This document shows, piece after piece, positions 12,563 to 29,790 of a stretch of 64,000 nucleotides of DNA. The DNA lies in NCBI GenBank assembly GCA_020349885.1, contig CP070701.1, positions 32,498 through 96,497 on the forward strand, written 5' to 3'. Under the pieces are notes generated by a model. The model was not told where the DNA came from. It ran no database searches and worked only from the letters and a program-made list of their open reading frames with translations. A program made the translations under genes and the position numbers. The DNA is from Acidobacteriota bacterium (GTDB taxonomy: Bacteria; Acidobacteriota; G020349885). Within the stretch, counting starts at the first letter, position 1; each line of letters begins with the position of its first letter.

Positions 12563-13332
12563 CGCCGTTTCTCGAATACCGCGACCTGCACAAGTCGTTC
12601 GGCACGAACCGCGTGCTCGACGGCCTGAACCTGGAAATCCGCAAGGGCGAGACGATGGTCGTCCTGGGCGCAAGCGGCACGGGCAAAAGCGTCCTCCTCA
12701 AGCACACCATCGGCCTTCTGAAGCCCGACCGGGGCGAGGTGCGGGTCGAGGGCACTGACATCGTCCCCTTCTCGGAAAGCGAGCTCCAGGCGGTGCGCGA
12801 AAAAATCGCGATCGTGTTTCAGGCGGGCGCGCTCTTCGACTCGCTCACGGTCTACGAGAACGTAGCCTACCCGCTGCACGAGCATCGGGATCTGCCCGAG
12901 GAGGCGGTGCGCGCCCGCGTGCGCGACACGCTGGGGCTCGTCGGGCTCTACGGCGTCGAGGAAAAAATGCCCGTCGACCTTTCGGGCGGCATGCGGAAGC
13001 GCGTCGCCCTGGCGCGCGCCATCGTGCTCGAGCCCGAGGCCATCCTGTACGACGAGCCCACGACGGGCCTGGACCCTATCATCGCTAACAAGATCAACGA
13101 CCTCATCATGAGCATGCAGAAAGTGCTGCGGGTGACGAGCATCGTCGTAACGCACGACCTGGTGAGCGCCTTCAAGGTGGGCGACCGGATCGCGCTCATC
13201 CACGAGGGGCGCATCGCCTTCGTGGGAACGCGCGACGAGGTGCGGCGCGCGGCGGATCCGACGCTCCTCGAGTTCACAACGGGCGGCGAGCGAGGTGGAG
13301 GCTATGAGCGAATCATCCAGCACGCGGGTTAA
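12559..13332 (+). CDS. mlaF: Phospholipid ABC transporter ATP-binding protein MlaF
   Basis: Walker A (GASGTGKSVLLK), ABC signature (LSGGMRKRVALARA) and Walker B (ILYDEPTTGLD) are all present. Confidence 0.9.
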   Translation: MTPFLEYRDLHKSFGTNRVLDGLNLEIRKGETMVVLGASGTGKSVLLKHTIGLLKPDRGEVRVEGTDIVPFSESELQAVREKIAIVFQAGALFDSLTVYENVAYPLHEHRDLPEEAVRARVRDTLGLVGLYGVEEKMPVDLSGGMRKRVALARAIVLEPEAILYDEPTTGLDPIIANKINDLIMSMQKVLRVTSIVVTHDLVSAFKVGDRIALIHEGRIAFVGTRDEVRRAADPTLLEFTTGGERGGGYERIIQHAG

Positions 13333-14743
13333 GGTCGGCGCTCTCATCGCCGTGGCGCTGGCCATTTTCGCCTTCGCCGTCGTGTCGGTGGGAACGCGCC
13401 AGAAGCTCTTTACGCGCTCCGTGACGTACACCGTGCACTTCCGCACCGTGGCGGGCCTTCAGGACGGGTCGCCCGTGAAGCTCCACGGCGTGCGCATCGG
13501 AACGGTCAAGTCGGTGTCGCTGACGCCCGATCCCATCGAGCAGCGCATCGACGTCGTGCTCTCCATCGAGCGGCGCTACGCGCAGCACATCCGCACCGAC
13601 ACCGTCGCGCAGATTAAAACCATCGGCCTCCTCGGCGACAAGTACGTGTTCCTCTCCTCGGAGCGTGACCCCGGGGCGGAGCCCATCGAGCCGGGCGGTG
13701 CGATTCGCGTCGTAGAGCTCGTGGACTACGACGTGCTCGTCCGCCAGAGCGAGGATATTCTCACGAACGCCGCCATCATCACGTCCTCGCTCCGGCAGCT
13801 TCTTCTGGGACTCGAGCGCGGTGAGACGCTCGCAGGAAAACTCTTCAGCGACCCCGACTTCGGCCACGACCTGGTCGATTCGATGACCCGGACGGTCAAA
13901 CACTGGGAAGGAATTTCCTCCGGCGTGCACGAGGGGCGCGGCCTCGCCGGCCGCTTCCTGACCGACGAGGCCTACGCCGAGCGAATCACGGGCGAGCTCG
14001 AAACGTCCATCGCGCGCCTGGAGCGCATCCTCGCAACCACCGAGGAGGGCAAAAACCTTGCAGGGAAGTTGCTCGTCGAATCGCCCGAAAGCGAGGAGCT
14101 CTTCGACAACCTCGTGGTTTTCTCGAAAGGGCTTCGGGAAGTGGGCGAGGCCTTCGAGAAGCACGAGGGCTTCCTGCCTTCGCTCATCGAGGGCTCCACG
14201 GAGGGGCGCGAGATGGCCGCGAACTTCCACGCGACGCTCCACAGCCTTGCCTCCATCCTGGACAAGCTCGACCGCGGCGAAGGCAGCGCCGGCGCCTTCC
14301 TGAACGAGCCCGCACTCTATCAGGCCATGGAGGACATCGTGGGTGCGGTGTCAAAGAGCGGCCCGACGAAGTGGTTTATACGCAAGAAGCGCCGCAAGGG
14401 CGAGCGCCAGCGATTGAAGGAAGAGCGCATTGAAGCCGCGGCGGAGGAGGAATCTTCTTCCGAAGGGAAGAAACGCCCGTCCTCCGACTCGCCGGCGGAC
14501 TCACTGTCCAGCCCGACTGGGGAGACGTCGGACGAGCCCGACTTGCCGGACGAGCCCGACTTGCCGGACGAGACCCTCTCCGAAGAACAGGAGGCCGGGC
14601 TCCTCCACGGCGGGGAAAAACGTTCCGCGCTGGCGCCCCAAGGCCGGACGCTTCCCGCGCCGCACGACGAGGTCGTGGTGACCGCAAAGCGTCCGCGCGA
14701 CCCCTTCGCCGAGCCGCCGCCCCCCCTGAAGAATCCTTCCTAA
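13304..14743 (+). CDS. mlaD: MCE-domain protein MlaD with long C-terminal helical/acidic extension
   Basis: An N-terminal TM segment is followed by an MCE domain (VHFRTVAGLQDGSPVKLHGVRIGTVKSVSL). A C-terminal extension of about 300 aa ends in an acidic tail with a DEPDLPDEPDLPDE tandem repeat. The ATG at 13304 has a good SD (GGTGGAGG). Confidence 0.8.
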   Translation: MSESSSTRVKVGALIAVALAIFAFAVVSVGTRQKLFTRSVTYTVHFRTVAGLQDGSPVKLHGVRIGTVKSVSLTPDPIEQRIDVVLSIERRYAQHIRTDTVAQIKTIGLLGDKYVFLSSERDPGAEPIEPGGAIRVVELVDYDVLVRQSEDILTNAAIITSSLRQLLLGLERGETLAGKLFSDPDFGHDLVDSMTRTVKHWEGISSGVHEGRGLAGRFLTDEAYAERITGELETSIARLERILATTEEGKNLAGKLLVESPESEELFDNLVVFSKGLREVGEAFEKHEGFLPSLIEGSTEGREMAANFHATLHSLASILDKLDRGEGSAGAFLNEPALYQAMEDIVGAVSKSGPTKWFIRKKRRKGERQRLKEERIEAAAEEESSSEGKKRPSSDSPADSLSSPTGETSDEPDLPDEPDLPDETLSEEQEAGLLHGGEKRSALAPQGRTLPAPHDEVVVTAKRPRDPFAEPPPPLKNPS

Positions 14744-14753
14744 GCGCGGCGGC

Positions 14754-15380
14754 ATGGAATTTCCCCGCGCGCTTGCACGAGAGGCCAAGCGGCGCAGGCT
14801 GCGCCTCGGCGAGCGCGAACGCGAAGCGTTCGAGACCCTCTATCTTCTTCTCACGCGCTGGAACGCGCGCATCAACCTGACGGGCCTCAAAACGCCCGCC
14901 GCCATCGCGCGCGTCCTGTTTGTCGAGTCGCTCCTCGCGGAGCAGATGGGTTTCGCGCTGGCGGGCCCGCTCCTCGACGTAGGCTCCGGAGCGGGCTTTC
15001 CGGGGCTCCCGCTCGCCGTGCGCCACCCCGCGCTGCGGGTGACGCTCCTCGAAGCGCGCGCCAAGCGGGCCGCGTTTCTGCGGGAGGCCGTCGCGCGTCT
15101 TTCCCTGACGAACGCGAGCGTCGTTGAGGGCCGTCTCGAAGAAGCCGCGGTCCAGGACCGCTTCGGGTCGCGCTACCGTTTTTTCGCGCTCCGCGCCGTG
15201 GGCGAGCTCGCGCCTTTTCTTCCCCGGCTCAAGGCGCTTGCGGGGAAGGAGCCCGTCGTGCTCGCTTACCTGAAAGCGCAGCGGCTGGCGTCCTGCGTCC
15301 GCGAGGGCCGCGTCGCCGTGATAAAGAGGAAGGCGCTTTCGTCGCCCGCGTCCGTGCTTGCGGCGCTGCGTTTCCTCTGA
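14754..15380 (+). CDS. rsmG: 16S rRNA (guanine527-N7)-methyltransferase RsmG (GidB)
   Basis: The SAM-binding motif LLDVGSGAGFPGLPLAV and the overall RsmG layout are present. Length is 208 aa. Confidence 0.85.
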   Translation: MEFPRALAREAKRRRLRLGEREREAFETLYLLLTRWNARINLTGLKTPAAIARVLFVESLLAEQMGFALAGPLLDVGSGAGFPGLPLAVRHPALRVTLLEARAKRAAFLREAVARLSLTNASVVEGRLEEAAVQDRFGSRYRFFALRAVGELAPFLPRLKALAGKEPVVLAYLKAQRLASCVREGRVAVIKRKALSSPASVLAALRFL

Positions 15381-15456
15381 TTGCTGCGTCCCTTTCCGCT
15401 TCTCGCCGGGGGAAGAGAGGCGGCCGCGTTTGCGGGAGAATGAGTTAAAAGAAAAA

Positions 15457-15490
15457 GGCGCAGTGTTTACTGCGCCCTTTTCAGTTTTTT
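15457..15490. terminator. Bidirectional rho-independent terminator between the convergent rsmG and lysine-rich-protein genes
   Basis: A GGCGCAGT-gttt-ACTGCGCC hairpin is flanked by an A-rich stretch upstream (AAAAGAAAAA) and a T-rich stretch downstream (CTTTTCAGTTTTTT). Confidence 0.6.
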
Positions 15491-15502
15491 GCCAAAGGCA
15501 GC

Positions 15503-15670
15503 TTAGCGCCTTTTCCTTTTCTTAGTTGCCTTCTTCTTAGTTGCCTTTCTCTTTGTCGCCTTCTTCTTTGTCTTCTTCTTGGCGGCGCTTTTCTTGGTGC
15601 GCTTTCGTGTTGCGCGCCCTTTCGTTGCCTTCTTCTTTTTGCTCCCGCCCTTTTTCGCTCGCTTTTTCAT
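15503..15670 (-). CDS. Small lysine/alanine-rich basic protein (histone H1-like / Hc1-like nucleoid-associated protein candidate)
   Basis: On the minus strand, ATG at 15670 to TAA at 15503 translates to MKKRAKKGGSKKKKATKGRATRKRTKKSAAKKKTKKKATKRKATKKKATKKRKRR. This is below the 60-aa cutoff of the ORF track. Upstream are a strong SD (AAAGGGGG) and a TTGACT...TATTCT promoter in an AT-rich region. Confidence 0.6.
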   Translation of the reverse strand: MKKRAKKGGSKKKKATKGRATRKRTKKSAAKKKTKKKATKRKATKKKATKKRKRR

Positions 15671-15837
15671 TTGCATTCACCCCCTTTCGTTTTTTGTTAG
15701 GGCCTTTCAGAATAACACTCTTTTTGAAAAAGTCAAGTCTTTTTGTAAAAAATTAATTTTTTTCTTCCGGCACCGCGTCAAAAAACCATAGGAGTATATA
15801 ACCTATGTATAAACATCATATTTCCCTGGAAGAAGGT

Positions 15838-16224
15838 TCAGGTCTTTGTGGTTTTTACGACGCCCGCGGCCATCTTGGCCACCGTCACGATGCCGACGCG
15901 CTGCCAGTCCCGCTCTCCCGCGTAGACGATGTGCAGCGTGTAGCGCAGCTCGGGCGATGCGTCCTGAATCATTTTGATCCATTTGAGGAAAAGCAGAATG
16001 CCGGCGGAATTGAGATACTCGAGTTTCGTGAAATCCAGGCGCACCTCGGAAAAGCCATGCTCCATGGCCTGCTGGTGCACCTGAGTCATGTAGGAGAACA
16101 GGATGTCGGAAGGATCCGGCATGCTGATTTCGCCGACGAATTCGAGCTCGGCGCCTCCCTCGATTTCCTTGGCGTGAATCTGAATGTCTTCCTGGCTGAA
16201 GTTCGAAACGGAAAATTTGCTCAC
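15838..16224 (-). CDS. STAS-domain (anti-sigma-factor-antagonist-like) protein, hypothetical
   Basis: A 128-aa protein with an LDFTKLEYLNSAGILLFLKW segment resembling the SpoIIAA/STAS core. This is a weak family-level call. Confidence 0.4.
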   Translation of the reverse strand: MSKFSVSNFSQEDIQIHAKEIEGGAELEFVGEISMPDPSDILFSYMTQVHQQAMEHGFSEVRLDFTKLEYLNSAGILLFLKWIKMIQDASPELRYTLHIVYAGERDWQRVGIVTVAKMAAGVVKTTKT

Positions 16225-16485
16225 GGCTTTATCCTCCTATAGTTCAAAGCGGTGCATCATAGCACAACCCGCTGCGTCGGCGCTACCTCCCGAGTCGAGT
16301 CATCCGGGCTCTTGCCGTAGGGAGTACCGTCTTGAAGTCGGGAATGGAGCGTTCTCGGTTTCGTCGAAACGCGTCGCGGGCTTGCTCGCCAGCCTGCCCC
16401 TCCGGGGCCCGCGGAAAAGTTGCCTGCTTTTCGCGTTTCCTTTATCATGCATCGTCCCGACTGATGACGGGGGGCAATTCTTATT

Positions 16486-17280
16486 ATGCTTCGAGTCTCG
16501 GTTCTCGCCAGCGGAAGCAGAGGCAACGCCACGTGGGTGGAGGCGCCCGACGGGGCGGCGCTCCTTATTGACGCCGGCCTCGGCCCGCGGGTGCTCGAGC
16601 ATCGCATCAAGGCCATCGGCCGCCGTCCCGACTCGGTGGCGGGCATCCTCGTCACGCACGAGCATTCCGACCACATCGCCGGCCTGGAGCGGTTCGCCGC
16701 GAAACACCGCGTTCCCGTTTACGCCTCCAAGAAGCTTCTGCAGCGCAGCAGGACCCTTCAGTACGTCCAGGCGCGCGTGCCGCTTACGGCGGGGAAGGCG
16801 GTCGACGTCTGCGGAATCCGCGCGACGCCCATTCCCGTGCCGCACGACGCCATCGACCCCTTCGCGTTCCGCATCGAGGCGGCGGGCGTGCGCTTGGGCT
16901 ACGTGACGGACATCGGGATGCCCACGCCCACGGCCGTGGAGGAGCTTTCCCGCTGCCACGCCCTTGTCGTCGAGTTCAACCACGACCGCGACATGCTCGA
17001 GAACGGCCCCTACGACCCCTGGCTCAAGGAGCGCATACGCGGCCGCCGCGGTCACCTTTCCAACGACCAAGGGGCGCACCTTCTCTCGTCGATTCTCCAC
17101 AAGGGCTGCCGCGACGTGTTCCTCGCGCACCTGAGCGAGCAGAACAACGAGGCCTCGCGGGCACTTGAGGCGGCTGACTGGGCGTGCGAGAAGCGCGGCT
17201 TTGCGCCGACGGTCCGCGTCGCGAGGCAGGAAGAGCCTTCCGAGCTTGTGCCCGTCCGCGACGGAAGGAGAAGTAAGTGA
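16486..17280 (+). CDS. MBL-fold metallo-hydrolase (YycJ/WalJ-like)
   Basis: The metallo-beta-lactamase HxHxDH motif (THEHSDHIAGL) is present. The N-terminus MLRVSVLASGSRGNATWVE is typical of the YycJ family. Confidence 0.8.
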   Translation: MLRVSVLASGSRGNATWVEAPDGAALLIDAGLGPRVLEHRIKAIGRRPDSVAGILVTHEHSDHIAGLERFAAKHRVPVYASKKLLQRSRTLQYVQARVPLTAGKAVDVCGIRATPIPVPHDAIDPFAFRIEAAGVRLGYVTDIGMPTPTAVEELSRCHALVVEFNHDRDMLENGPYDPWLKERIRGRRGHLSNDQGAHLLSSILHKGCRDVFLAHLSEQNNEASRALEAADWACEKRGFAPTVRVARQEEPSELVPVRDGRRSK

Positions 17281-18377
17281 GCGCCGACTTTGCGGAGCTC
17301 TGGCGGTCTCCGTACCTTCAGGCGCTCGTCCTGGTTCTCTTCGCCTGGCCTGCGGCTCGCCTCTTCGACTTCGTCCTGATCCGCTGGGTCGCCCGGTTAG
17401 CTCGGAAAACCAAGAGCGAGCTCGACGACGCCATCCTGGCCGTCATGCACAGGCCCGTGATGCTCATCGTCGTCCTCCTGGTCGTGCGCGCGGCCGTGCT
17501 TCGCCTGGGCGACAGGATTCACCCCGTGGCCGTCCAGTACCTCGAGGGGGGCATCTACGTAATCGGCGTCGTCGTGGGCGTCATGCTCGCCCACGGCCTT
17601 CTCCGTGCGGTGCTCGACTGGTACGCGGCCGAGCTGGCCCGCCGCACGCAGTCGAAGGTGGACGACAAGTTCCTGCCGCTTCTCTACAAGATCGGGCGCA
17701 TCTTCGTGGCGCTCACCGGCGCGATGGTGGTTCTGCAGCATTTCCACTTCAACATCGCCTCCCTGGTCGTGTCGCTCGGCGTGGGCTCGCTCGCGGTGGG
17801 CCTGGCGGCGCAGGACACGATAGCGAACATCATCGCCGGCTTCCTGATAATGCTCGACAAGCCCTTCCGCATCGGCGACCGCATCGAGTTCTCCGACGGC
17901 ACCGTCGGGGACGTCGTGGACATCGGGCTCCGCTCGACCAAGATCAAGAATTTCGACCACAACGTCATCATCGTTCCCAACAAGGACCTCGTCAACGAGC
18001 GTCTCGTCAACTACGGCTACCCCGATTTCGTCCAGACCGTCCGCCTGCGGGTGGGCGTCGCCTACGGGAGCGACGTGGCCAAGGTGAAGCGGCTGCTCCT
18101 TGAGTGCGCGAGGCAGGTGGAAAGCATCGACAAGGAGGATGAGCCGGTGGTGCGCTTCATCGAGTTCGGCGACTCGTCGCTCAACTTCCTGCTTCTCGGC
18201 AAGGTGAGGAACTACCGGGACCGCTTCGCCGCCGTGGACGCCCTGCACACGCTCGTGGACAAGCGCTTCGCCGAGGAAGGCATCGAGATCCCGTTCCCGC
18301 ACCGCACGGTGTTGCACCGCGTCGAGGACGCGGAGCTGGAGAAGCTGCGGAAGTCGGATGTGAAGCTGCCTTCCTGA
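17277..18377 (+). CDS. Mechanosensitive ion channel, MscS family
   Basis: N-terminal TM helices are followed by a conserved MscS beta domain ([54 protein letters not shown]). Confidence 0.85.
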
Positions 18378-18393
18378 GGATTCCTCTCACGCC

Positions 18394-19071
18394 GTGACCC
18401 CCGCCGTCGTTCTCATCTCCGGTGGCATGGACTCGGCCGTGGCGGCCGCCGCGGCGAAACGCGAAGGTTTTTCCCTTTACGCCCTAACGCTCCGCTACGG
18501 TCAGCGCCATGCGGCGGAGCTGCGTGCGGCGCGCCGCGTTGCGAAGGCCCTCGGCGTCCGCGAGCACCTCGTGCTTCCCGTAAATTTGAGGGCCTTCGGC
18601 GGCTCTGCTCTGACTGGAAATATCGCCGTCCCCGGGCGGAGGAAAAGCACGCGCGGCATTCCCGCCACCTACGTTCCCGCGCGCAACACGGTCTTCCTGT
18701 CGCTCGCGCTCACCTACGCCGAGACGCGCAAGGCGTTCGACATCTTCATCGGCGCGAACGTCGTCGACTACAGCGGCTACCCCGACTGCCGCCCCGCGTA
18801 CCTTCGCTCCTTCGAGCGCACGGCGAACCTCGCCACCAAGGCGGGCGTCGAGGGCAGGGGAAAATTCCGCATCCGCGCGCCGCTTCTGAGGAAGAGCAAG
18901 GCGCAAATCGTGCGCCTGGGGCTCCGCCTGGGCGTGGATTTTTCGCTGACGCGCTCCTGCTACGACCCCGCGCCTCGCGGCGCCGCCTGCGGCGCGTGCG
19001 ACGCCTGCCGCCTTCGCTTGAAGGGGTTCCGCGAGGCGGGCGTCGAGGATCCCGTCCGCTACGCGAAGTAA
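18394..19071 (+). CDS. queC: 7-cyano-7-deazaguanine synthase QueC
   Basis: A PP-loop ([15 protein letters not shown]) and the C-terminal Zn-binding CxxC...[10 protein letters not shown] motif are present. Length is 225 aa. Confidence 0.9.
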
Positions 19072-20917: not shown

Positions 20918-20952
20918 CAACGTCGGCGGTGCGCGGATAGAGTGGTATATAG

Positions 20953-21023
20953 GCGGCGTAGCCAAGTGGTAAGGCAAGGGTCTGCAAAACCCTCATTCGC
21001 CGGTTCGAGTCCGGCCGCCGCCT
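20953..21023 (+). tRNA. tRNA-Cys (GCA)
   Basis: Cloverleaf by eye: acceptor GGCGGCG/CGCCGCC, D-arm GCCAAGTGGTAAGGC, anticodon stem-loop GGGTCTGCAAAACCC (anticodon GCA), T-arm GCCGGTTCGAGTCCGGC, discriminator T. No CCA is encoded. Confidence 0.85.
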
Positions 21024-21143
21024 CTCTCCTCCCCTAAACCGCCGAGGCCGTCAAGGGCTTTTGTTCCCCCTTTTTTTGCTTCCTTGCCGGAGCCCCATGG
21101 GTAACTTGCAAGCCGTGTCCTCATGTGTATCATGAGGCACGCT

Positions 21144-21572
21144 ATGGCGGAGAGAAAGCCATACCGAGTGTTGGACCACACCGCCGACATCGGTCTGGAA
21201 GCGCATGGCCAGACCCTGAGAAAGCTTTTCGAGAACGCGGCGGCGGGTTTCTACGCCCTTCTGGTCAAGGGCGGCGACGTGCGCACGCGCCAGACCGTCG
21301 AGCTCTCGATCCGCGCACACGACATCGAGGCGCTTTTTGTGCGCTTTCTCCAGGAGCTCAACTACCTTTACCAGACGCAGCGCCTTGTGGGAGGCCGCGT
21401 CGAGGTGCATAACATAGAGGAGCGGACGCTGCACGCCTCGGTGAGGGGGGAAACGCTCGACCCGCAACGCCACACCGTCCTGCGCGACATTAAGGCCGTG
21501 ACCTACCATGGGCTCACGCTCAAAAAGGTGAGAAAGAAGAGCTGGAAGGCCACCGTGCTCTTTGACGTGTAG
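21144..21572 (+). CDS. Archease family protein (activator of RtcB-type RNA ligase / tRNA-modifying enzymes)
   Basis: The N-terminal LDHTADIGLEAHG and C-terminal DIKAVTYHGLTL...ATVLFDV are hallmark archease motifs. Length is about 143 aa. Confidence 0.8.
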   Translation: MAERKPYRVLDHTADIGLEAHGQTLRKLFENAAAGFYALLVKGGDVRTRQTVELSIRAHDIEALFVRFLQELNYLYQTQRLVGGRVEVHNIEERTLHASVRGETLDPQRHTVLRDIKAVTYHGLTLKKVRKKSWKATVLFDV

Positions 21573-21665
21573 GGCCGGCCGTAGCCTTCTTCCACGTCTC
21601 ATGCTATAATCCCTTTTCTATCGGCAAAACTCGTATATGGACATGCTTCTGCGAAAGGAGCCCAC

Positions 21666-22760
21666 ATGACCACCCCCGCAGCCGAAAAGGCGAAAGCTTC
21701 GGAAAAGCGCGGCGCGCCGGCCGCGACGGGCGATAAACATAAGAAGGTTGTCGAGACGACCGTCTCCCAGATTGAGAAGCGCTTCGGCAAAGGCTCCATC
21801 ATGCGCCTCGGCGACGACGTGCGCGTGGAGGTTCCGAGCATCCCCTCGGGCTCGCTGATGCTTGATTATGCGCTGGGAGTCGGCGGCTACCCGCGGGGGA
21901 GGCTCGCGGAAATTTACGGCCCCGAGGGTTCCGGGAAAACCACGCTTGCCCTCCACGCCATCGCGGAGGCGTACAAGGCGGGCGGTGCCGCCGCGTTCGT
22001 GGACGCCGAGCATGCGCTCGACCCCGTGTACGCGCGCTCGCTGGGCGTCAACACGGACGAGCTCCTCGTCTCTCAGCCCGACCACGGCGAGCAGGCGCTC
22101 GAGATTGCAGAGATGCTCCTGCGGAGCGGCGCGATGGACATCGTCGTCGTGGATTCCGTGGCGGCCCTCGTGCCCCGCGCCGAACTCGAGGGAGAAATGG
22201 GAGACTCCTTCATGGGACTCCATGCGCGCCTAATGTCGCAGGCCATGCGCAAGCTGGTCGCCATCTTTTCGAAGTCCAAGACGTGCCTCATCTTCATCAA
22301 CCAGATACGGGAAAAGATCGGCGTCTTCTTCGGCAATCCGGAGACGACGACGGGCGGCCGCGCCCTCAAGTTCTATACCTCGGTTCGCGTAGAGGTGCGC
22401 CGCAAGGGCCTTATTCGTGAGGGCCAGGACACCGTCGGAAACCGCACCGCGGTCAAGGTGGTCAAGAACAAGCTGGCGCCGCCGTTTCGGCAGGCGGAGT
22501 TCGATATTCTTTACGGGAAGGGCATCTCGCGCGCGGGAGAAATCATTGACTTTGGAATGGATTTGGGCCTGGTGGAAAAGGCAGGCGTCTGGTTTTCCTA
22601 CGGCGAGACGCGGCTGGGACAGGGCCGGGGGAACGCCGTGCGCTTTCTGCAGGAGAATACCGACGTGGCGGACGACCTTACGTCCAAGATTCGTGAGCAG
22701 CTGAGCACGGCGAGGCCCCGCGTCGTGGGCGCCTCGGGTAGTCATGCGGACGATTTTTAA
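21666..22760 (+). CDS. recA: Recombinase RecA
   Basis: Canonical RecA sequence ([12 protein letters not shown]...[39 protein letters not shown]; [19 protein letters not shown]). Confidence 0.97.
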
Positions 22761-24753
22761 GCTCGTCCTCGCCTTTGCTGCGCTGGGGGTTTTTCCTCAG
22801 TGGGCGCTGGCCCAGGAGGAAGCGCCCGCCGAGTCCGAGCCGCCCGCCCCGGCCCCGTTGGTGCAAACGTGCCCTCCGCCCCGCATCGTGCTCCACAGCC
22901 CATCGCTCCTCCTGCGACGCGCCCCCACGACCATAACGCTCCATGCCCTCCGCCGCGACGGAATGCAGAAAGGGGCGTTCCAGGGAACGGTGGCGCTGGA
23001 GGGGTTCTATCGGCGCGATCCGGAAAACCCCGCGGTCAGGATTCCCATTGAGCAGGCCAAATTCGCAGAGGGCGAAGCCGTGCTCGAAAAGGCGATGGTC
23101 ACAAGGGTCCCACTCGCGGCGCAGGGCGAGCGGCTTGAGGCGCGGATTCTCCCCGGCTGGGTTTCGCTTCTTCCGCCGATTCTGGCGATCGCGCTCGCCA
23201 TCGCGTTCCGCCAGGTCATTATGGCCCTCGCGTTCGGAATTTACCTGGGCGCCTTCTTCGTGGAGGGGTTCGACCCGTTCCGGGCGCTTCTTCGTGTGGC
23301 GGACAAGTACGTGCTCGACACCGTTGCCCACGATCCCGGCCACGTCCACGTTATCTTTTTCACTCTCATGATCGGGGGCATGGTGGCGGTCGTAAGCCGC
23401 TCGGGCGGCACGCAGGGAATCGTGGACGCCGTGTCGCGGCACGTCCGCTCCGTGCGCACGGGACAGGTTTCGACGTGGGTGCTGGGACTTTTGATCTTCT
23501 TCGACGACTACGCGAACACCCTCATCGTGGGCAACACCATGCGCCCCTTCACCGACCGCCTGCGCGTCTCGCGCGAGAAGCTTTCCTACATCGTGGACAG
23601 CACGGCCGCCCCCGTCGCATGCGTGGCCATCATCTCCCTTTGGATCGGCATGGAGTTGGGCCTCATCGGGGACTACAAGGAATCCATTGACGGCGCCTTG
23701 GCCAGCGTGGGAATCAGGTCCCCGGACGTGTACGGTATCTTCATCGCCTCCATCCCGTACAGCTTCTACTGTCTTCTGACCCTTTTCTTCGTTTTTGTGG
23801 TCGCGGCCACGCTCCGCGATTTCGGCCCCATGCGCCGCGCCGAGGAGCGCGCCCATGCAACGGGCGAGGTGCTCCGCCCCGGCTCGGTGCCGCTTTCCGA
23901 CAAGGAGCTTTCCATGCTCGAGGCCCCCGAGGGCAAGCCGCGGCGCTGGGTGAACGCGGCCGTTCCTATAGGGGGGCTCATTTTATTTACCATCGTGGGG
24001 CTTTACGTCACCGGCAGCCAGGCGCTGGGAAGCGAGGCAAAGAATGTCGGATTTGTGGAGATTTTCGGGGCGGCCGATTCATTCAAAGTCCTCTTGTGGG
24101 CGGCGTTCGGCGGAGGCCTCCTCGCCGTGGTGCTGGCGGTATCCCAGCGAATTCTTTCCCTGGAAGAGGCGCTGCGGACGTGGGTGACGGGTATAAAATC
24201 CATGGTGCTCGCGGTCATCGTCCTGCTGCTGGCATGGTCGTTGGGGGCCTTGTGCAAGGGCGAGATGCTGACGGGAAGCTATCTGGTGGAAGTCTGCCGC
24301 GACGTCCTGCCGCCGAGCCTGCTGCCGCTGCTCGTCTTTCTTTTGGCCGCGGGCATCTCGTTCGCCACGGGCACCTCGTGGGGCACGATGGCCATTTTGT
24401 TCCCCGTGGCTATTCCCATGGCGTGCGTGTTCATCGGAGAGGGGGGCGTTTCGCCCGAGAGGGCCGCGCCGATCCTCTATGCCACCATCGCGGCCATTCT
24501 GTCGGGCGCCACGTTCGGCGACCACTGCTCCCCCATTTCCGACACGACCATCCTGTCCTCCATGGCCTCGAGCTGCGACCACATTGACCACGTGCGCACC
24601 CAGATCCCTTACGCGCTGACGGTCGCGGGCGTCGCCGCCTTTATCGGCTACCTTCCCGTTGGCTTAGGCGTCCCCGTCTACGTGAGCCTCGTGGTGGGCG
24701 CCGCCGTTCTCGCGGCGGTGGTCTATCTTGCGGGAAAGCCCGTGGCACGCTGA
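22744..24753 (+). CDS. NhaC-family Na+/H+ antiporter-like membrane transporter with N-terminal periplasmic domain
   Basis: A signal peptide and a roughly 150-aa soluble domain precede a polytopic NhaC-like core ([41 protein letters not shown]). Confidence 0.65.
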
Positions 24754-24880
24754 CGGGTTTAGGCGGCGCGGTTGGGGCTTTGCCCCGGACGGCTTGCAGG
24801 TGCCTTTTTCAGAAAAAACCGAGAACAAAGAGAAGATGCTCCTCGAGGCGGTCAAAAAGCGGTTGTGAAAAGGAAGGGGT

Positions 24881-26797
24881 ATGGTGTACTTCATTTTGTT
24901 CTTTTCTTCAATCTTTCTTGTTGGCTTCACGGCGGTCGTTTTAACATACCGTCCCGTTCACTCTAAAAATCTTCCTGTCCTTTACGGAAGCGTCGCCGTT
25001 GGAAACGCGCTATCCGTATTTTTGCTTAATGGATTGTGTTACGGGATAGGCGTGGAAGGCGGCATGTGGGCCGCACCTGCAATGGGATTCGCTGTCTTTG
25101 CTTTGGCCTGGATGGCTTCTGGAAAATTTCGTGAAGAAACCAGGGCCATTTGGCGCCGTCTACAGGAAAAGACGGGGGCAAAGAGGAATCAGCAATACGG
25201 GGTCCTGTTTGCGGGGATTCTCATCGTGGGGTTCCTTGCGGCGATTGCCTTCTTTACGACCAGGCATGATGCAGAGGCCCACCATGCGCAATTGGCGACC
25301 ATTAGCATGGGGAATTTTCCGGCGATGTTTCCCTTTCAACCAGACCTCTCTCTTTTCTACCATTATGGCTTCGCACTTTTCGCGGCCTTTCCCTTTCGCG
25401 CGACGTCTTGGGATATAAACATCGTGGAGGACCTGTGCTTAACGTGGATCATGTTGGGCGCGGTACTGTCGGCGGTCAATTTCGTGAAAGTTTATTTTTC
25501 CGCCCGGCGAAAGGCTCAAATTATGGGATTGCTTTTTTATTTTTTCGGATACGGCCCTCTTGGAATTTGCGGCTTATTGTATTTTACGGGATTTTTTTTG
25601 GAGTGGCTTCCCGAGGTCTTGGGGCCCATTTCCGTGCTTTCTTATTCCAATTCATTCCTGCGCCGGGCGCCTGCCATGGCCTATGCAGTGCTGCCGACGT
25701 TCTTGTGGATGTTGCATCGATTCTGGGACACCCGCAAGCCCTGGCCTGCAGGACAGGCCTTGCTCCTGGTGGGCATTATGGCTTCGTTTGGGCTGCTTGC
25801 TGAGGAGGTGCCCATAATCACAGGGGCGGCAATCGTTTTGGTAGGATTGAAGGATTGGCTTAAGGGGCATATGCCTCTTACGAAGGTTGTGGTTTTGGGG
25901 GCGTTCTTGCTGCTATCGCTGCTTCTATGTCTGGGGCAGGGAGGTATGCCCACTTACGCCGCCCGCGCGCTGATCCAAGGTTCGGGGGAATTGGTGCCTG
26001 AGATGCAATCGGTCAAGCACTTTAACATAATATGGCCGCCCGGGGTGCCCGCGTACACGGGATACGGCCATGCCTTTTCTCCCACGCTCTGGCGCGTTTT
26101 GTTGTTGGAATTCGGCCCTCTGTTTCTGTTGTTCCCATACTTCTTATGGCCGGGGCGAGATTCATTCCGACAGCTGATCTATACGATGTGCTGGATCGGG
26201 TTGCTTGTTCCGGCGTTTTTCACGTGGGGGCAAACCTCGTTCGATATGCAGCGGTTCTCGCAGATCTCCCTCTATCTGGCGTATCTGTTTGCCGGACGAT
26301 TTTTGGCGGATGTCTTGGAGGCAAGAGTTGCTTCTCGCCGCCTTCGGACTCTGGGATATGTCGCCTTAGCGGTGTTTGTGACGCTGACGCCTGTTCTCCA
26401 TGGTGCGCATCGCATCGCAAGAAAGCAGACCCATGTTTGGGTGGCCCATGAAGCCGAGGCCATCGTGCAAGACGCGAAAATGTATATTCCTCCTTTAAGT
26501 CGCGTCGTAACCTTGGCGCGCTTAAACTACCCCTTGCACCGTGAAGGCTATTTCGCGCTTTACGATACCCCTCCCGATCTATTTTATCTAACCGGTATGC
26601 TGAGAGGCCGACACGACGCTTCGCTTGAAAAACTCTCGCGTGAGAAATGCTTGGATTGGCGACCGGATTTCCTCCTGGTGCCTTTTCGGGTAGCGGAGCA
26701 TTTTCAGAAAACAGTGCCCGAATCCAGGGCCACGCCTCTTCGCACGTATATTTACAAAGGAGAACCCCTGCATTTGATAAAGATCGATTTCCCCTGA
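24881..26797 (+). CDS. Large polytopic membrane protein (possible GT-C-fold glycosyltransferase-like), hypothetical; in low-GC island
   Basis: A 638-aa ORF with 12 or more predicted TM helices and a C-terminal soluble domain. It has no catalytic motif I can name. Codon composition is markedly lower-GC than flanking genes. Confidence 0.5.
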   Translation: MVYFILFFSSIFLVGFTAVVLTYRPVHSKNLPVLYGSVAVGNALSVFLLNGLCYGIGVEGGMWAAPAMGFAVFALAWMASGKFREETRAIWRRLQEKTGAKRNQQYGVLFAGILIVGFLAAIAFFTTRHDAEAHHAQLATISMGNFPAMFPFQPDLSLFYHYGFALFAAFPFRATSWDINIVEDLCLTWIMLGAVLSAVNFVKVYFSARRKAQIMGLLFYFFGYGPLGICGLLYFTGFFLEWLPEVLGPISVLSYSNSFLRRAPAMAYAVLPTFLWMLHRFWDTRKPWPAGQALLLVGIMASFGLLAEEVPIITGAAIVLVGLKDWLKGHMPLTKVVVLGAFLLLSLLLCLGQGGMPTYAARALIQGSGELVPEMQSVKHFNIIWPPGVPAYTGYGHAFSPTLWRVLLLEFGPLFLLFPYFLWPGRDSFRQLIYTMCWIGLLVPAFFTWGQTSFDMQRFSQISLYLAYLFAGRFLADVLEARVASRRLRTLGYVALAVFVTLTPVLHGAHRIARKQTHVWVAHEAEAIVQDAKMYIPPLSRVVTLARLNYPLHREGYFALYDTPPDLFYLTGMLRGRHDASLEKLSREKCLDWRPDFLLVPFRVAEHFQKTVPESRATPLRTYIYKGEPLHLIKIDFP

Positions 26798-26909
26798 TGC
26801 ATTGCGGAGAGCGGAAAACATTTGACGGTTGCTCATAAGGTTGGCAACGTTTTTTGCCTATAAGGGCACGGCTCGCAAGCAAGCGCAGAATGTTTCGTGC
26901 TCCTCGTAG

Positions 26910-26915
26910 TATAAT
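26910..26915 (+). promoter_or_regulatory. Perfect TATAAT -10 element upstream of the M1-like peptidase gene (weak -35)
   Basis: GTAGTATAATGA lies about 165 nt upstream of the ATG at 27079. It is preceded by a GTTGC...GCAAC hairpin plus a T6 tract at 26826-26856, a possible terminator for the preceding gene. Confidence 0.3.
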
Positions 26916-27078
26916 GATTCCGGGAGCAAAAGAGTAAAGGCCTGGCAAACAAGCCCTGCGATGAAAATTTTCTTTCTAATGCTTTATCGCGGCAAGATGC
27001 GTTGAAAACGCCCGTCCCATCGGCTACCATAGTCGCGTGCCGTTCCTAGACATAGACACCATAAGCAAGGAGACAACG

Positions 27079-29790
27079 ATGATTCGCAAACGCATGCTTT
27101 GCCGAACCGGTATCCTTTTTGCCGCCGCCGTCGTTTTGGCGGCCTTTTCCACGCCCGCTCAGGAAGGGGCCAAGAGCGACCTGGAGCGCCTCTACGGCGA
27201 GTTCAACGAAATTTCTCTCGATACCTCCCAGGGCTTCGCCGTCAAGAATTTTCTGCTCGAGCACGACAGCTTCTCCGCGAAGCTCGAGGACGGAATCATT
27301 TTCTTTTCAAACAAGATCGGCGGCCAGTTCTACGCCGCCGTTTTCTTGGGCAAGGGGGAGATGACTCTACGCATCCCCGAGCCCGTCAAAGACATGCAAT
27401 TCAGAAATATCCTCTGGGGGCGGGAGAGTGAGGACCCCTCAAGGAAGGGAATCAAGGGCCAGCCTTTTACGGAAGCCTTCCTTGTGGTGCCGCCGGACAT
27501 TAAGGCGCCGGTCAATTACGAGCTTCTTTCCGGAAAGTTCAAGATACCCGGCTCGGAAGTGGCGGCGGTTACGGAAGGCGGGCTTCTCGAAAAGCACAGC
27601 GAGCGCGCGCAGGAGCTTTTTGCGCAGCAAGCGGGCCCTCCGGACTGGAGGGAGATTCCCGTGAGAACTATGGTATGGCGCCATTTGAACAATTTCACTA
27701 ACGAGTATTTCGAATTCCGGGCGAACACCAAGGATTTTCAATGGGTGCGGTTTCTATTTAATCCGGACTTCGAGCGCGAGTGCCGTGCGGGGCGCATCTC
27801 CTATGAAGCGGCCTATGGACGCCAGCAAGTGATTGAAAAAGGAGGCGTGTCATGGGATCGCCGGAAAGACTATCGACAAGCGGAGGGCGGCTGGACGGCG
27901 AACCTGCGCGAGCGCCTACACGAAGACAGGCGCACCGTCGAGATTTTTCATTACGATATGGGCATCACCGTTGAGAAGGCGGCTTTGCTTCTCAAGAATA
28001 AGATGACGATGCGTATCCGGCCGCGAAGAGAGGGAGCACGCTGCGCAAGGTTCGACTTCCTCTCACATTGGCAAGACGATAAGCGCAAGGCCTTTCTCAT
28101 AAAGAAATGCACGGGTGCCGAGGGAAACTCCCTTCCCTTTTTGCACGACAAGGACGAACTCTTAGTGGACATGGGAAAAACCATGGAGATAGAAAAAGAT
28201 TACAGCATTACTTTGGAATACGAAGCCAAATTTATCAAGCCACTCGACAATATCGTCAAACCGGATTCGATCGATCCCGTTGAGTGGCAAAGAATTCTTC
28301 AAGATTTCTTGCAATTCTTACCAGCCCAGCCCTCCACGCATACTCTTCTCAACACCTACCCGTGGTACCCCCAAGCAGGCGGCATGGAAAACGAAGCCAC
28401 CTACGATGTCAAAGTCAGAGTGCCTTTCGAATTTATTGCTGCGGCTTCCGGGCACACGGTAGAACGCTGGCAGGAGGAACCCGATTACGAGTGCCTGCAT
28501 ACGCGGCTCGATAAGCCGGTGAGCTTCTTCGCCATTATTTTCGGACGCTATCAGATGCTTTCGGGGAAGTTATACGGCGAGGAGAAAAGCCGGGCCGAGG
28601 CGTATGACGACGAGGAAGAGGAGGAAGGGGAAGAGGATGAAGAGATAAACGTAGAGGAATACGCAAAGAAATGGGGCGATCCCACTATTTACGTCTATGC
28701 GCTTGACCGTCAGCAACGAGCGCTTCCCGCCATGCTGGACAAGGCGCGCAACATGCTTCACTATTATAACGAATTTTTTCAAAGGCCCTTTCGCTACGAG
28801 GAATTGGACATTGTTCAAATGGGTTTCTTTATGGGGTTCGGACAAGCGCCTCCGGGACTGGTGCAGCTTACGGGAGAAGCTTTTCTGCGTCAAACAGAAC
28901 TTGCTGCCCACTTTGAATGGATAGATCCCGGATTTCTCGAAGGCTTCCTTGCCCATGAGCTGGGTCATGAATGGTGGCCGGATATCACGGGCATGCGCAA
29001 CTATGAACAGGACGCGTGGTTGAGCGAGGGATTTGCGGAGTATGCGTCGGGGCTTTACTTGGAGAACACCAATGGCTTTAAGGCCCTATGCGAGGACGCT
29101 GAGGCGCAGTGGCTCAAAGTAGGGGGCTACGGAGGAGGAGGAATCCTTGACGTAAAACCTTACGAACAAGGCTCCATCTACTCTCCCGGGGCGAGCTACG
29201 AAACCCAGGTGTATCAAAAAGGCCCCTACGTTCTCCACATGCTCCGTAGCATCCTCGGCCCAGAGCTTTTCCAGGCGCTTCTGCAGCGGTTTATGAAAGA
29301 TTTCGCGGGGAAACAGCCCGTGACGCCCGACTTCATTGACACCGTCAGGAAGGTCATCTTCGAATATGTGAAGGGCGATCCGTTTAAGACCTACCGTGAA
29401 AACGGAACACCGTTATCAGAGTGGTCGCCGGCGCACCGGGACGAGTTCCTCCGCATGGGCGATTTCTACAAGAATCTCGACGCCTGGTTCGAGGACTGGT
29501 ATATCGACCCGGGCCACGCGGAGATCCACTTCTCGTGGAGCGCGCAAAAGGACACCGAAAAGGGAGGTTACGTTTTTACGGGCCGCATCCGGCAGGACCC
29601 CAAGGAATTCAAGATGGTGCTCGCGCCCATCATTCTGCGCTTCAAGAAAGATTCGTCGCTCGTGCGGTTCTTTGTCGATAAACCGGATTACGAATTCCGG
29701 CGACGCGTTGACAAAGAGCCGACCGAAGTGGTCTTCGACGAATTCAAGATGCTCGCGGCCGAGGTGACGGTTGAAGCGGCTCAGCCGTAG
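27079..29790 (+). CDS. Secreted gluzincin (M1-like, MA-clan) zinc metallopeptidase, atypical
   Basis: The Zn-binding motif HELGHEWW...(19)...EGFAEYAS has the HEXXH-X18-19-E spacing of the M1/gluzincin family, but I found no recognisable GAMEN exopeptidase motif. An N-terminal signal peptide (ILFAAAVVLAAFSTPAQE) and an acidic DDEEEEEGEEDEE stretch are present. A strong SD (AAGGAG) lies before the ATG at 27079. Confidence 0.7.
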   Translation: MIRKRMLCRTGILFAAAVVLAAFSTPAQEGAKSDLERLYGEFNEISLDTSQGFAVKNFLLEHDSFSAKLEDGIIFFSNKIGGQFYAAVFLGKGEMTLRIPEPVKDMQFRNILWGRESEDPSRKGIKGQPFTEAFLVVPPDIKAPVNYELLSGKFKIPGSEVAAVTEGGLLEKHSERAQELFAQQAGPPDWREIPVRTMVWRHLNNFTNEYFEFRANTKDFQWVRFLFNPDFERECRAGRISYEAAYGRQQVIEKGGVSWDRRKDYRQAEGGWTANLRERLHEDRRTVEIFHYDMGITVEKAALLLKNKMTMRIRPRREGARCARFDFLSHWQDDKRKAFLIKKCTGAEGNSLPFLHDKDELLVDMGKTMEIEKDYSITLEYEAKFIKPLDNIVKPDSIDPVEWQRILQDFLQFLPAQPSTHTLLNTYPWYPQAGGMENEATYDVKVRVPFEFIAAASGHTVERWQEEPDYECLHTRLDKPVSFFAIIFGRYQMLSGKLYGEEKSRAEAYDDEEEEEGEEDEEINVEEYAKKWGDPTIYVYALDRQQRALPAMLDKARNMLHYYNEFFQRPFRYEELDIVQMGFFMGFGQAPPGLVQLTGEAFLRQTELAAHFEWIDPGFLEGFLAHELGHEWWPDITGMRNYEQDAWLSEGFAEYASGLYLENTNGFKALCEDAEAQWLKVGGYGGGGILDVKPYEQGSIYSPGASYETQVYQKGPYVLHMLRSILGPELFQALLQRFMKDFAGKQPVTPDFIDTVRKVIFEYVKGDPFKTYRENGTPLSEWSPAHRDEFLRMGDFYKNLDAWFEDWYIDPGHAEIHFSWSAQKDTEKGGYVFTGRIRQDPKEFKMVLAPIILRFKKDSSLVRFFVDKPDYEFRRRVDKEPTEVVFDEFKMLAAEVTVEAAQP

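Follow-up and report, generated by a model that had tools for sequence, protein, structure and literature searches.

A small gene for a strongly basic, lysine-rich protein of 55 amino acids (aa) was analysed in a stretch of 64,000 nt from the genome of an Acidobacteriota bacterium (GenBank assembly GCA_020349885.1, contig CP070701.1, positions 32,498 to 96,497 of the forward strand). This whole stretch is called the window in the following, and coordinates refer to it. The gene, here named the polycation gene, is located on the minus strand between a gene for a predicted STAS-fold protein and the 3'-end of the convergent rsmG gene (Table 1). It had been proposed in a preceding inspection of the DNA without database searches (the sequence-only reading) as an unannotated, free-standing gene with strong expression signals, whose product may compact DNA like histone H1 or bind RNA or ribosomes.

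Table 1. Features of the polycation locus (L002-L004, related metagenome contigs; SD, Shine-Dalgarno sequence; UTR, untranslated region)
Feature	Position	Strand	Basis and remarks
Polycation coding sequence (CDS), 55 aa	15503..15670	-	Sequence read, composition computed; stop codon TAA at 15505-15503
Predicted 5'-UTR, ~32 nt	15671..15702	-	Contains the SD; start site placed ~7 nt past the -10 hexamer
Sigma-70-type promoter	15709..15736	-	Consensus scan; both hexamers invariant in four loci
A/T-rich tract GAAGAAAAAAATTAATTTTTTACAAAAAGAC, UP-element-like	15737..15775	-	Sequence read; largely conserved in L002-L004; directly upstream of the -35 hexamer
Intrinsic terminator	15441..15482	-	Scan and folding; stem-loop 15482-15451, followed by a T-rich tail
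Predicted STAS-fold (anti-sigma-antagonist/SiaC-like) gene, 128 aa	15838..16224	-	Adjoins the polycation gene upstream in four loci

Composition of the coding sequence

The translation of the open reading frame (ORF) agreed exactly with the one initially given, MKKRAKKGGSKKKKATKGRATRKRTKKSAAKKKTKKKATKRKATKKKATKKRKRR. The protein of 6.35 kDa comprises 26 lysine and 8 arginine residues and neither aspartate nor glutamate, resulting in a net charge of +34. Lysine and arginine together make up 62% of the sequence, proline does not occur, and the initiator methionine is the sole hydrophobic residue. The whole window contains 645 ORFs of 25 aa or more, and in this set the polycation ORF is an extreme outlier, its lysine fraction being 46-47% versus 23% in the next-highest ORF. 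Thus, the high lysine content (estimated at about 45%; 26 out of 55 residues, i.e. 47%) was borne out, whereas the repeats described as AKK/TKK had to be redefined as a five-residue KKKAT unit of 15 nt.

The gene is situated in an AT-rich pocket, as initially noted. The 300-nt GC minimum of 0.413 found there is the lowest of the window (mean 0.633, standard deviation 0.055). Since lysine codons are of the AAR type and the promoter region is rich in A and T, no special explanation of this pocket is necessary. The coding strand consists to 80% of purines and contains only 2.4% T, corresponding to 4 uridines among the 168 nt of the coding region in the mRNA. GC content at third codon positions amounts to 0.64 versus 0.77-0.92 in the neighboring genes, and alanine and threonine codons mostly end with A or T (GCA for alanine, ACA or ACT for threonine), a codon usage that is atypical for this genome. 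Selection against slippery poly-A runs among the lysine codons was not significant (P about 0.27-0.50). The mRNA of the coding region is mostly composed of AAG, AAA, GCA, and ACN triplets and thereby displays an (A-R-N)n-like pattern. Tracts of the (A-R-N)n type bind to the distal face of Hfq.

Expression signals

A consensus scan recovered the promoter TTGACT-N16-TATTCT that had been read from the sequence. It consists of the -35 hexamer TTGACT (15736-15731), a 16-nt spacer, and an extended -10 element, TGtTATTCT, in which TG precedes the -10 hexamer (15714-15709). The A/T-rich tract adjacent to the -35 hexamer resembles an UP element and may function as such. The canonical SD is AAGGAGGTGA, from which the SD of the polycation gene, AAGGGGGTGA (15686-15677), deviates at one position. 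A distance of 6 nt separates its end from the ATG at 15670; the 9 nt reported for this near-ideal SD are obtained when counting starts where the G run ends. The combined promoter and SD pattern occurs a single time in the window, compared to 0.00 occurrences expected from shuffled sequences.

Downstream of the CDS, an intrinsic terminator with a 14-bp stem and a 4-nt loop was predicted at -26.5 kcal/mol (z = -5.7 versus shuffled sequences). Read on the plus strand, its hairpin is found approximately 75 nt past the rsmG stop codon. The clean bidirectional terminator proposed for 15457-15490 was hence found in essence, but is slightly offset (15482-15451), and the T run on the plus strand is weaker, so that bidirectional function is plausible but less clean than assumed. 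Rfam yielded no family match at the locus except for a sub-threshold, terminator-like hit. Folding of the 3'-UTR revealed just one small additional hairpin and no alternative antiterminator pairing.

Taken by its predicted signals, the polycation gene is a monocistronic, separately expressed unit. The predicted mRNA of approximately 255 nt, 80% purine, would be transcribed from its own promoter, translated from its own ribosome binding site, and end at its own terminator. The possibility that the ORF is fused to the upstream STAS gene or forms its tail was rejected because the window has an in-frame stop codon just upstream of the start; a longer extension in the related contig L004 is not conserved.

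Conservation in related contigs

An independent assembly (L001) reproduced the locus from 12819 to 18796 with 1 mismatch in 5,978 nt. The designation as unannotated applies to an ORF cut-off of 60 aa, but gene callers had called the gene or its orthologs in three assemblies. In L001 the called form has 57 aa and starts at the ATG at 15676. Because this ATG is absent in the relatives, with ATG TAA at the respective site in L004, the start was assigned to 15670.

Three metagenome contigs (L002, L003, and L004) carry a lysine-rich ORF downstream of the same 128-aa STAS-fold gene, the latter sharing 90-95% DNA identity with that of the window. In all four loci CGAAAGGGGGTGAA and the promoter hexamers are invariant and are followed by an ATG and the lysine-rich ORF. 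Identity to L004 amounts to 92% in the block from the -35 hexamer to the start codon, 82% in the CDS, and 72% in the intergenic DNA further upstream. Among the codons aligned with L004, 28 are identical, 17 differ synonymously and 10 nonsynonymously, and the differences are distributed over the three codon positions as 6/10/21. Insertions and deletions (indels) among the orthologs comprise repeat-unit changes of 15 and 75 nt as well as changes of 3 and 6 nt, all of which are in frame, and the other two sense frames are interrupted by stop codons in L004. In the L004 terminator two stem positions are changed on both sides with the pairing left intact (-29.2 kcal/mol).

The free-standing, lysine-rich small gene with strong expression signals that had been postulated is thus conserved in relatives and displays substitutions and indels of the coding type. 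We are highly confident that the polycation gene is real. As far as can be seen, it is restricted to a narrow clade.

Repeat array and predicted structure

Tandem Repeats Finder reported a 15-nt period with the consensus AAGAAGAAGGCAACG, which encodes K-K-K-A-T. In the window the array of KKKAT-type pentamers forms the C-terminal part of the CDS (15515-15580). It comprises about 4.5 copies versus 14.6 copies in L004, the ortholog of which has 88 aa and a net charge of +53. The N-terminal part of about 45 residues is a degenerate but conserved version of the repeat theme, and the C-terminal pentamers vary in number. In line with this, the autocorrelation of basic versus non-basic residues has its maxima at lags 5 and 10, with lag-5 values of 0.31 in the window and 0.60 in L004.

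AlphaFold2 (AF2) run without an alignment returned a single helix covering residues 19-54 (pLDDT 86, pTM 0.44) and no globular fold. Single-sequence predictions often render peptides rich in lysine and alanine as long helices, and the helix was not used as evidence for a stable fold. We take the model to indicate only that a globular fold is absent and that a helix might form after charge neutralisation.

Homology searches and family membership

Searches of protein families and protein libraries did not assign the polycation protein to a known family. A Pfam-A hmmscan with E-values up to 10 found no family for the 55-aa protein or its 88-aa ortholog, and NCBIfam contained no match to the protein. 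Among PDB sequences the sole hit was a low-complexity stretch of uL11c (E = 0.75). A phmmer search via a word index of 5.8 billion proteins resulted in 88 candidates, none of which reached E <= 0.01, the self-match included. With a profile built from three orthologs the best E-value was 0.77, for unrelated lysine-rich proteins, and no hit at all was obtained when 1.84 billion representatives were scanned exhaustively with HMMER. In an exact-sequence cluster look-up the sequences were absent from that collection, and a literature search on peptide strings retrieved no paper. These negatives are weak evidence, as compositional corrections depress the scores of such sequences.

Comparison with individual families led to the same picture. 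For Hc1/HctA (PF07432) there was no profile match and no non-repeat domain such as its N-terminal dimerisation domain, and for the linker histones H1/H5 (PF00538) neither a profile match nor a winged-helix globular domain was found. The Hc2/HctB profile (PF07382, HC2) matched neither the 55-aa nor the 88-aa protein. Instead of the flanks typical for Hc2 (about 24 aa at the N-terminus and about 69 aa at the C-terminus), the protein has an N-terminal part that is basic and degenerate, and a distinct region at the C-terminus is lacking; a lysine-rich pentamer array, lack of aspartate and glutamate, and length variation by copy number are shared with proteins of the Hc2 type. KPAA repeats and an N-terminal helical domain as in AlgP and PhaF are missing, and the period is 5 rather than 4. 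Ribosomal protein families gave no match either, and length is not conserved (55 or 88 aa). Hence, the sequence gives no support to membership in Hc1, Hc2, the linker histones or a family of ribosomal proteins.

Two further scans were made at the level of loci. A scan of a genome collection with the alignment of the STAS neighbor gave only two distant hits, both in a metagenome-assembled genome of the Desulfobacteraceae, with no lysine-rich ORF nearby. When metagenomes were scanned with the DNA pattern of promoter and SD, 18 out of 18 hits belonged to an unrelated membrane-protein family of low GC content, in a collection that did not contain even L002. Within this family, L009-L011, L013, L016-L022, and L025 encode multi-pass membrane proteins of approximately 136-138 aa (MDQKKAVSFLTFWVVNTVV...) of low-GC organisms. 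L013, L016-L022, and L025 share a near-identical upstream region (TTGACTTAAAAACACTATTGATCTATTCT...AAGGGGGTGA).

Similarity to known lysine-rich proteins

Bacterial histone H1-like proteins built from lysine-rich repeats are a known compositional kind, of which the polycation protein is a minimal, repeat-only example. The chlamydial Hc2 contains lysine-rich pentamers, carries no acidic residues in its repeat region and varies in length with repeat number; it binds DNA and, with high affinity, RNA in a non-specific manner and represses transcription as well as translation (PMC2848022). Similarly, consecutive lysine-rich pentamers give rise to size variation of BpH1 of Bordetella, which is produced during exponential growth and is dispensable (PMC2848022). 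The pentamers of Hc2 (HctB) comprise alanine, threonine, and valine and find their counterparts here in KKKAT and KKKVT with a DNA period of 15 nt. In contrast, Hc2 is 165-237 aa long with non-repeat parts at the N-terminus (24 aa) and the C-terminus (69 aa) and a higher-order repeat of 36 aa, and has two basic residues per pentamer instead of three. Moreover, the gene described here belongs to a metagenome-assembled genome of an Acidobacteriota bacterium of free-living type with no known developmental cycle, and its promoter is housekeeping-looking. The Bordetella protein BpH1 and the Hc2-like proteins of Burkholderia, Ralstonia, and Herminiimonas share short tandem lysine-rich pentamers and size variation with the polycation protein, and expression in exponential growth, as for BpH1, would fit its sigma-70-type promoter. 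These proteins have 149-231 aa, so that the protein found here is three to four times smaller with a denser charge, judged from a comparison by description only. Proteins of the BpH1 type did not appear in the searches of the large libraries, a negative that carries no weight in view of the scoring of low-complexity sequences.

AlgP and PhaF of Pseudomonas represent a further group of repeat polycations, which bind DNA, act at polyphosphate or polyhydroxyalkanoate (PHA) granules, and possess a mutable repeat region (PMC9239181). The polycation protein has in common with them a disordered, lysine-rich tandem-repeat sequence, but their repeats are proline-rich KPAA tetrapeptides combined with a structured N-terminal domain (AlgP, 352 aa), whereas neither proline nor a second domain is present here. 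The C-terminal domain of the eukaryotic linker histone H1 is likewise rich in lysine, alanine, and threonine and lacks acidic residues. It is disordered alone and thought to turn helical on DNA. The polycation protein differs from H1 in the absence of a winged-helix domain and of S/TPKK motifs and in its density of basic residues of 62%; H1 tails have a lower density, and protamines come closer to this value. Of the analogies initially suggested, Hc1 and AlgP fit less well than Hc2 and BpH1. Judged by analogy, the protein most closely resembles the pentamer-repeat proteins Hc2 and BpH1, without demonstrable homology.

DNA encoding KKKATKKKATKKK was found in 30 contigs in a scan of viral contigs (IMG/VR). 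Here, (KKKAT)n is mostly attached to unrelated domains as a tail at the N- or C-terminus, and the GC content of the genomes ranges from 27 to 62%; a few cases are small lysine-rich ORFs, e.g. L035 (55 aa, 42% lysine). Neither promoter, neighboring gene nor flanking similarity is shared with the polycation locus. We regard the viral (KKKAT)n stretches as convergent low complexity and not as homologs, and (KKKAT)n as a recurrent polyanion-binding module. L028 and L032 encode near-identical viral proteins of 101 aa in which an N-terminal (KKKAT)4 tail is combined with a Cys-rich, zinc-ribbon-like domain (CPRCGC...CLGC), which illustrates the use of (KKKAT)n as an add-on nucleic-acid-binding tail. 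L026 and L029 are located on the same 618-kb contig classified as viral (IMGVR_UViG_3300022719_000283, GC about 0.56-0.59), which encodes two lysine-rich proteins. One is a 216-aa ORF, counted from the first ATG, with 47% lysine and TATKKKKK-type repeats in its C-terminal half, the other a protein of 170 aa with a lysine-rich centre and a C-terminal region. Both add to the lysine-repeat proteins that would go unnoticed in homology searches.

Genomic context

The 128-aa neighbor yielded weak matches to STAS, SiaC, and the slr1659 superfamily, all below cut-off. Its AF2 model (pLDDT 87) gave 4qtp, 8ih8, 1tid, 6m36, and 7e6g as top PDB matches. On the basis of this model the protein is assigned to the STAS/anti-sigma-antagonist fold, and a functional link with the polycation gene would be suggested by adjacency only. 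It is lineage-restricted, with 5 proteins including itself among the 5.8 billion proteins searched. Its motif Asn72-Ser73-x-Gly75 is invariant and may be the counterpart of the serine that can be phosphorylated in SpoIIAA-type proteins. The STAS gene is not accompanied by an adjacent gene for a partner kinase or phosphatase. Its GC content (about 0.55) is below that of its flanks, and the differences from L002 by codon position (12/3/6) fall mostly on first positions, which is unusual under purifying selection.

Both sides of the locus are occupied by housekeeping genes, namely mreB, mreC, PBP2, rodA, mlaE, an ABC ATPase gene, mlaD, and rsmG on the upstream side in window order, and genes for an MBL-fold hydrolase and MscS, queC, pdxA, and tRNA-Cys on the downstream side. 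An origin from a mobile element was rejected in view of these flanks and of the lack of plasmid or phage DNA matches. Directly upstream of the STAS gene, the window carries the MBL gene, L002 (3-674) and L003 (1-162) carry a queC-like gene on the same strand, and L004 carries an AIRS-domain gene and a PF1765-like gene. The queC gene of the window (18394-19071) lies on the other strand at a distance of about 2 kb from the STAS gene, and the MBL and MscS genes separate the two. These differing upstream genes among close relatives indicate that the boundary upstream of the STAS gene was rearranged repeatedly. The STAS gene and the lysine-rich gene stay together, in L004 along with an apparent 3'-end of a convergent rsmG, judged by eye.

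In a more distant part of the window, approximately 5 kb (24500-29500) have a GC content of 0.50-0.56 versus 0.63. This region harbors a 638-aa ORF (24881-26797, plus strand) without a Pfam match and a 917-aa, M1-peptidase-like ORF (27037-29790, plus strand), and may have been acquired. The tRNA-Cys gene (20952-21024) is followed by three ORFs (21051-22745, minus strand) for which Pfam gave no match.

Putative function of the polycation protein

A polycation of this composition, devoid of a hydrophobic core, would be unable to fold alone. It probably binds the phosphate backbone of DNA, and presumably that of RNA, electrostatically and without sequence specificity, and may turn helical once its charge is neutralised. 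If abundant, it would act as a nucleoid-associated, charge-neutralising and condensing protein. Repeat slippage, by altering the length (55 to 88 aa), would also alter its valency. In our view, this change between close relatives fits a low-specificity, non-stoichiometric binder better than a structurally integrated subunit, and (KKKAT)n tails on unrelated viral proteins are expected of a generic polyanion-binding module. Our working interpretation, which we hold with even confidence for and against, is that the product may be an abundant, non-specific, nucleoid-associated nucleic-acid binder acting in a mode like that of Hc2 and BpH1. The structural claims of the sequence-only reading were confirmed. 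Its proposal that the protein compacts DNA in the manner of H1 or binds RNA or ribosomes is suggested by composition and repeat architecture, and profile and homology tests were negative.

Several points weigh against this interpretation. We infer abundance from the sequence and the ligand from the composition; the former step draws on consensus signals only, and the atypical codon usage is not what highly expressed genes usually display in a GC-rich genome. On the basis of composition, DNA, RNA, ribosomes, and polyphosphate cannot be told apart as the main ligand, and homology to any characterised DNA-binding protein was undetected in Pfam, NCBIfam, PDB, and the large protein libraries. Conservation is based on only four loci of one narrow clade, and a further contig (L005) with a 47%-identical homolog of the STAS gene contains no lysine-rich ORF in the available 260 nt downstream. 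Furthermore, the excess of differences at third codon positions is also compatible with an antisense poly-Phe frame.

Instead of organising DNA, the product may be a small basic protein associated with RNA or the ribosome, i.e. an rRNA binder comparable to the tiny, extremely basic ribosomal proteins, a general RNA chaperone or a translation repressor, a possibility that we regard as unlikely but to be taken seriously. An abundant product with a role in translation would agree with the strong promoter, SD, and terminator, and the gene adjoins rsmG, which encodes a 16S rRNA methyltransferase, although the two genes converge and do not share a transcript. High-affinity RNA binding and repression of translation are also properties of Hc2 (PMC2848022), and lysine-rich disordered regions of ribosome-biogenesis factors of E. 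coli bind polyanions (PMC12345225). However, apart from uL11c at E = 0.75 no ribosomal family or chain was matched in Pfam, NCBIfam or PDB, the gene is located outside a ribosomal operon, and it is detectable in a narrow clade only. Moreover, the protein has 55 aa in one and 88 aa in another of these closely related genomes, which would be unusual for a structurally integrated ribosomal component.

Rather improbable in our estimation is a polycation of polyphosphate granules or other polyanion inclusions, which, in the manner of the C-terminal repeats of AlgP and PhaF, would tether granules or set their spacing with respect to the nucleoid. Lysine-rich regions bind polyphosphate in E. coli (PMC12345225), and the charge density of the polycation protein is still higher (+34 in 55 aa). 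On the other hand, without proline there is no repeat of the KPAA type, a structured N-terminal domain as in AlgP and PhaF is missing, and neither ppk nor a granule gene is among the annotated flanking genes. Since AlgP also binds DNA, this explanation partly overlaps with that of a nucleoid-associated binder.

We consider it very improbable that the locus is not meaningfully protein-coding, that is, that it specifies a purine-rich RNA (e.g. a sponge for binders of A-R-N repeats), carries an ORF that is incidental to an AAG-rich microsatellite, or has its real gene in a Phe/Leu-rich ORF on the opposite strand. The 80% purine and 2.4% T of the CDS with its AAG/AAA-rich 15-nt repeats and the codon usage atypical for the genome would agree with this, and repeat-unit indels are multiples of three regardless of translation. 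Nevertheless, the near-consensus SD at optimal spacing and the ATG are conserved in four loci, the 3- and 6-nt indels keep the frame although they are outside the repeat-unit register, and the ORF is open over 55-88 codons, with stop codons breaking the remaining sense frames in L004. Rfam contributed no family match beyond the sub-threshold terminator-like hit. The sequence-only reading had raised the complementary strand as a possible cause of the conservation. The antisense poly-Phe frame is indeed open in the window and in L004 and shares the third-position pattern, yet it has no conserved start, it would extend across the promoter, which is itself conserved, and in L004 its frame is shifted by a 1-nt indel within the 5'-UTR. 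It was hence rejected as a real gene.

A lysine-sensing leader peptide, in which stalling at the 26 lysine codons controls a downstream terminator or gene, superficially resembles the arrangement of a codon run for a single amino acid followed by a strong terminator, but is next to inconceivable and was rejected on gene order, since no co-directional gene follows the terminator, past which the 3'-end of the convergent rsmG comes next, and no alternative antiterminator pairing was seen; to our knowledge, known leader peptides are far shorter than 55-88 codons.

Conclusions

As for the origin of the nucleic-acid binder proposed here, we regard it as doubtful, if conceivable, that the gene is a young, lineage-restricted invention that arose when an AAG-rich 15-nt microsatellite expanded beside a strong promoter. 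Its product would then be a kind of bacterial protamine, in which copy number tunes compaction or polyanion buffering. If this were true, no smaller free-standing bacterial chromatin protein consisting only of repeats would be known. Provided that it is abundant, the product would represent a major constituent, hitherto unlisted, of the nucleoid or of RNA or polyphosphate chemistry in an uncultured lineage of the Acidobacteriota. It would also provide a minimal natural model for the organisation of nucleic acids by a polycation made purely of lysine repeats. Genes of this kind evade homology searches, trypsin-based proteomics, and ORF-length cut-offs, and nucleoid-associated proteins of environmental bacteria may thus be under-counted.

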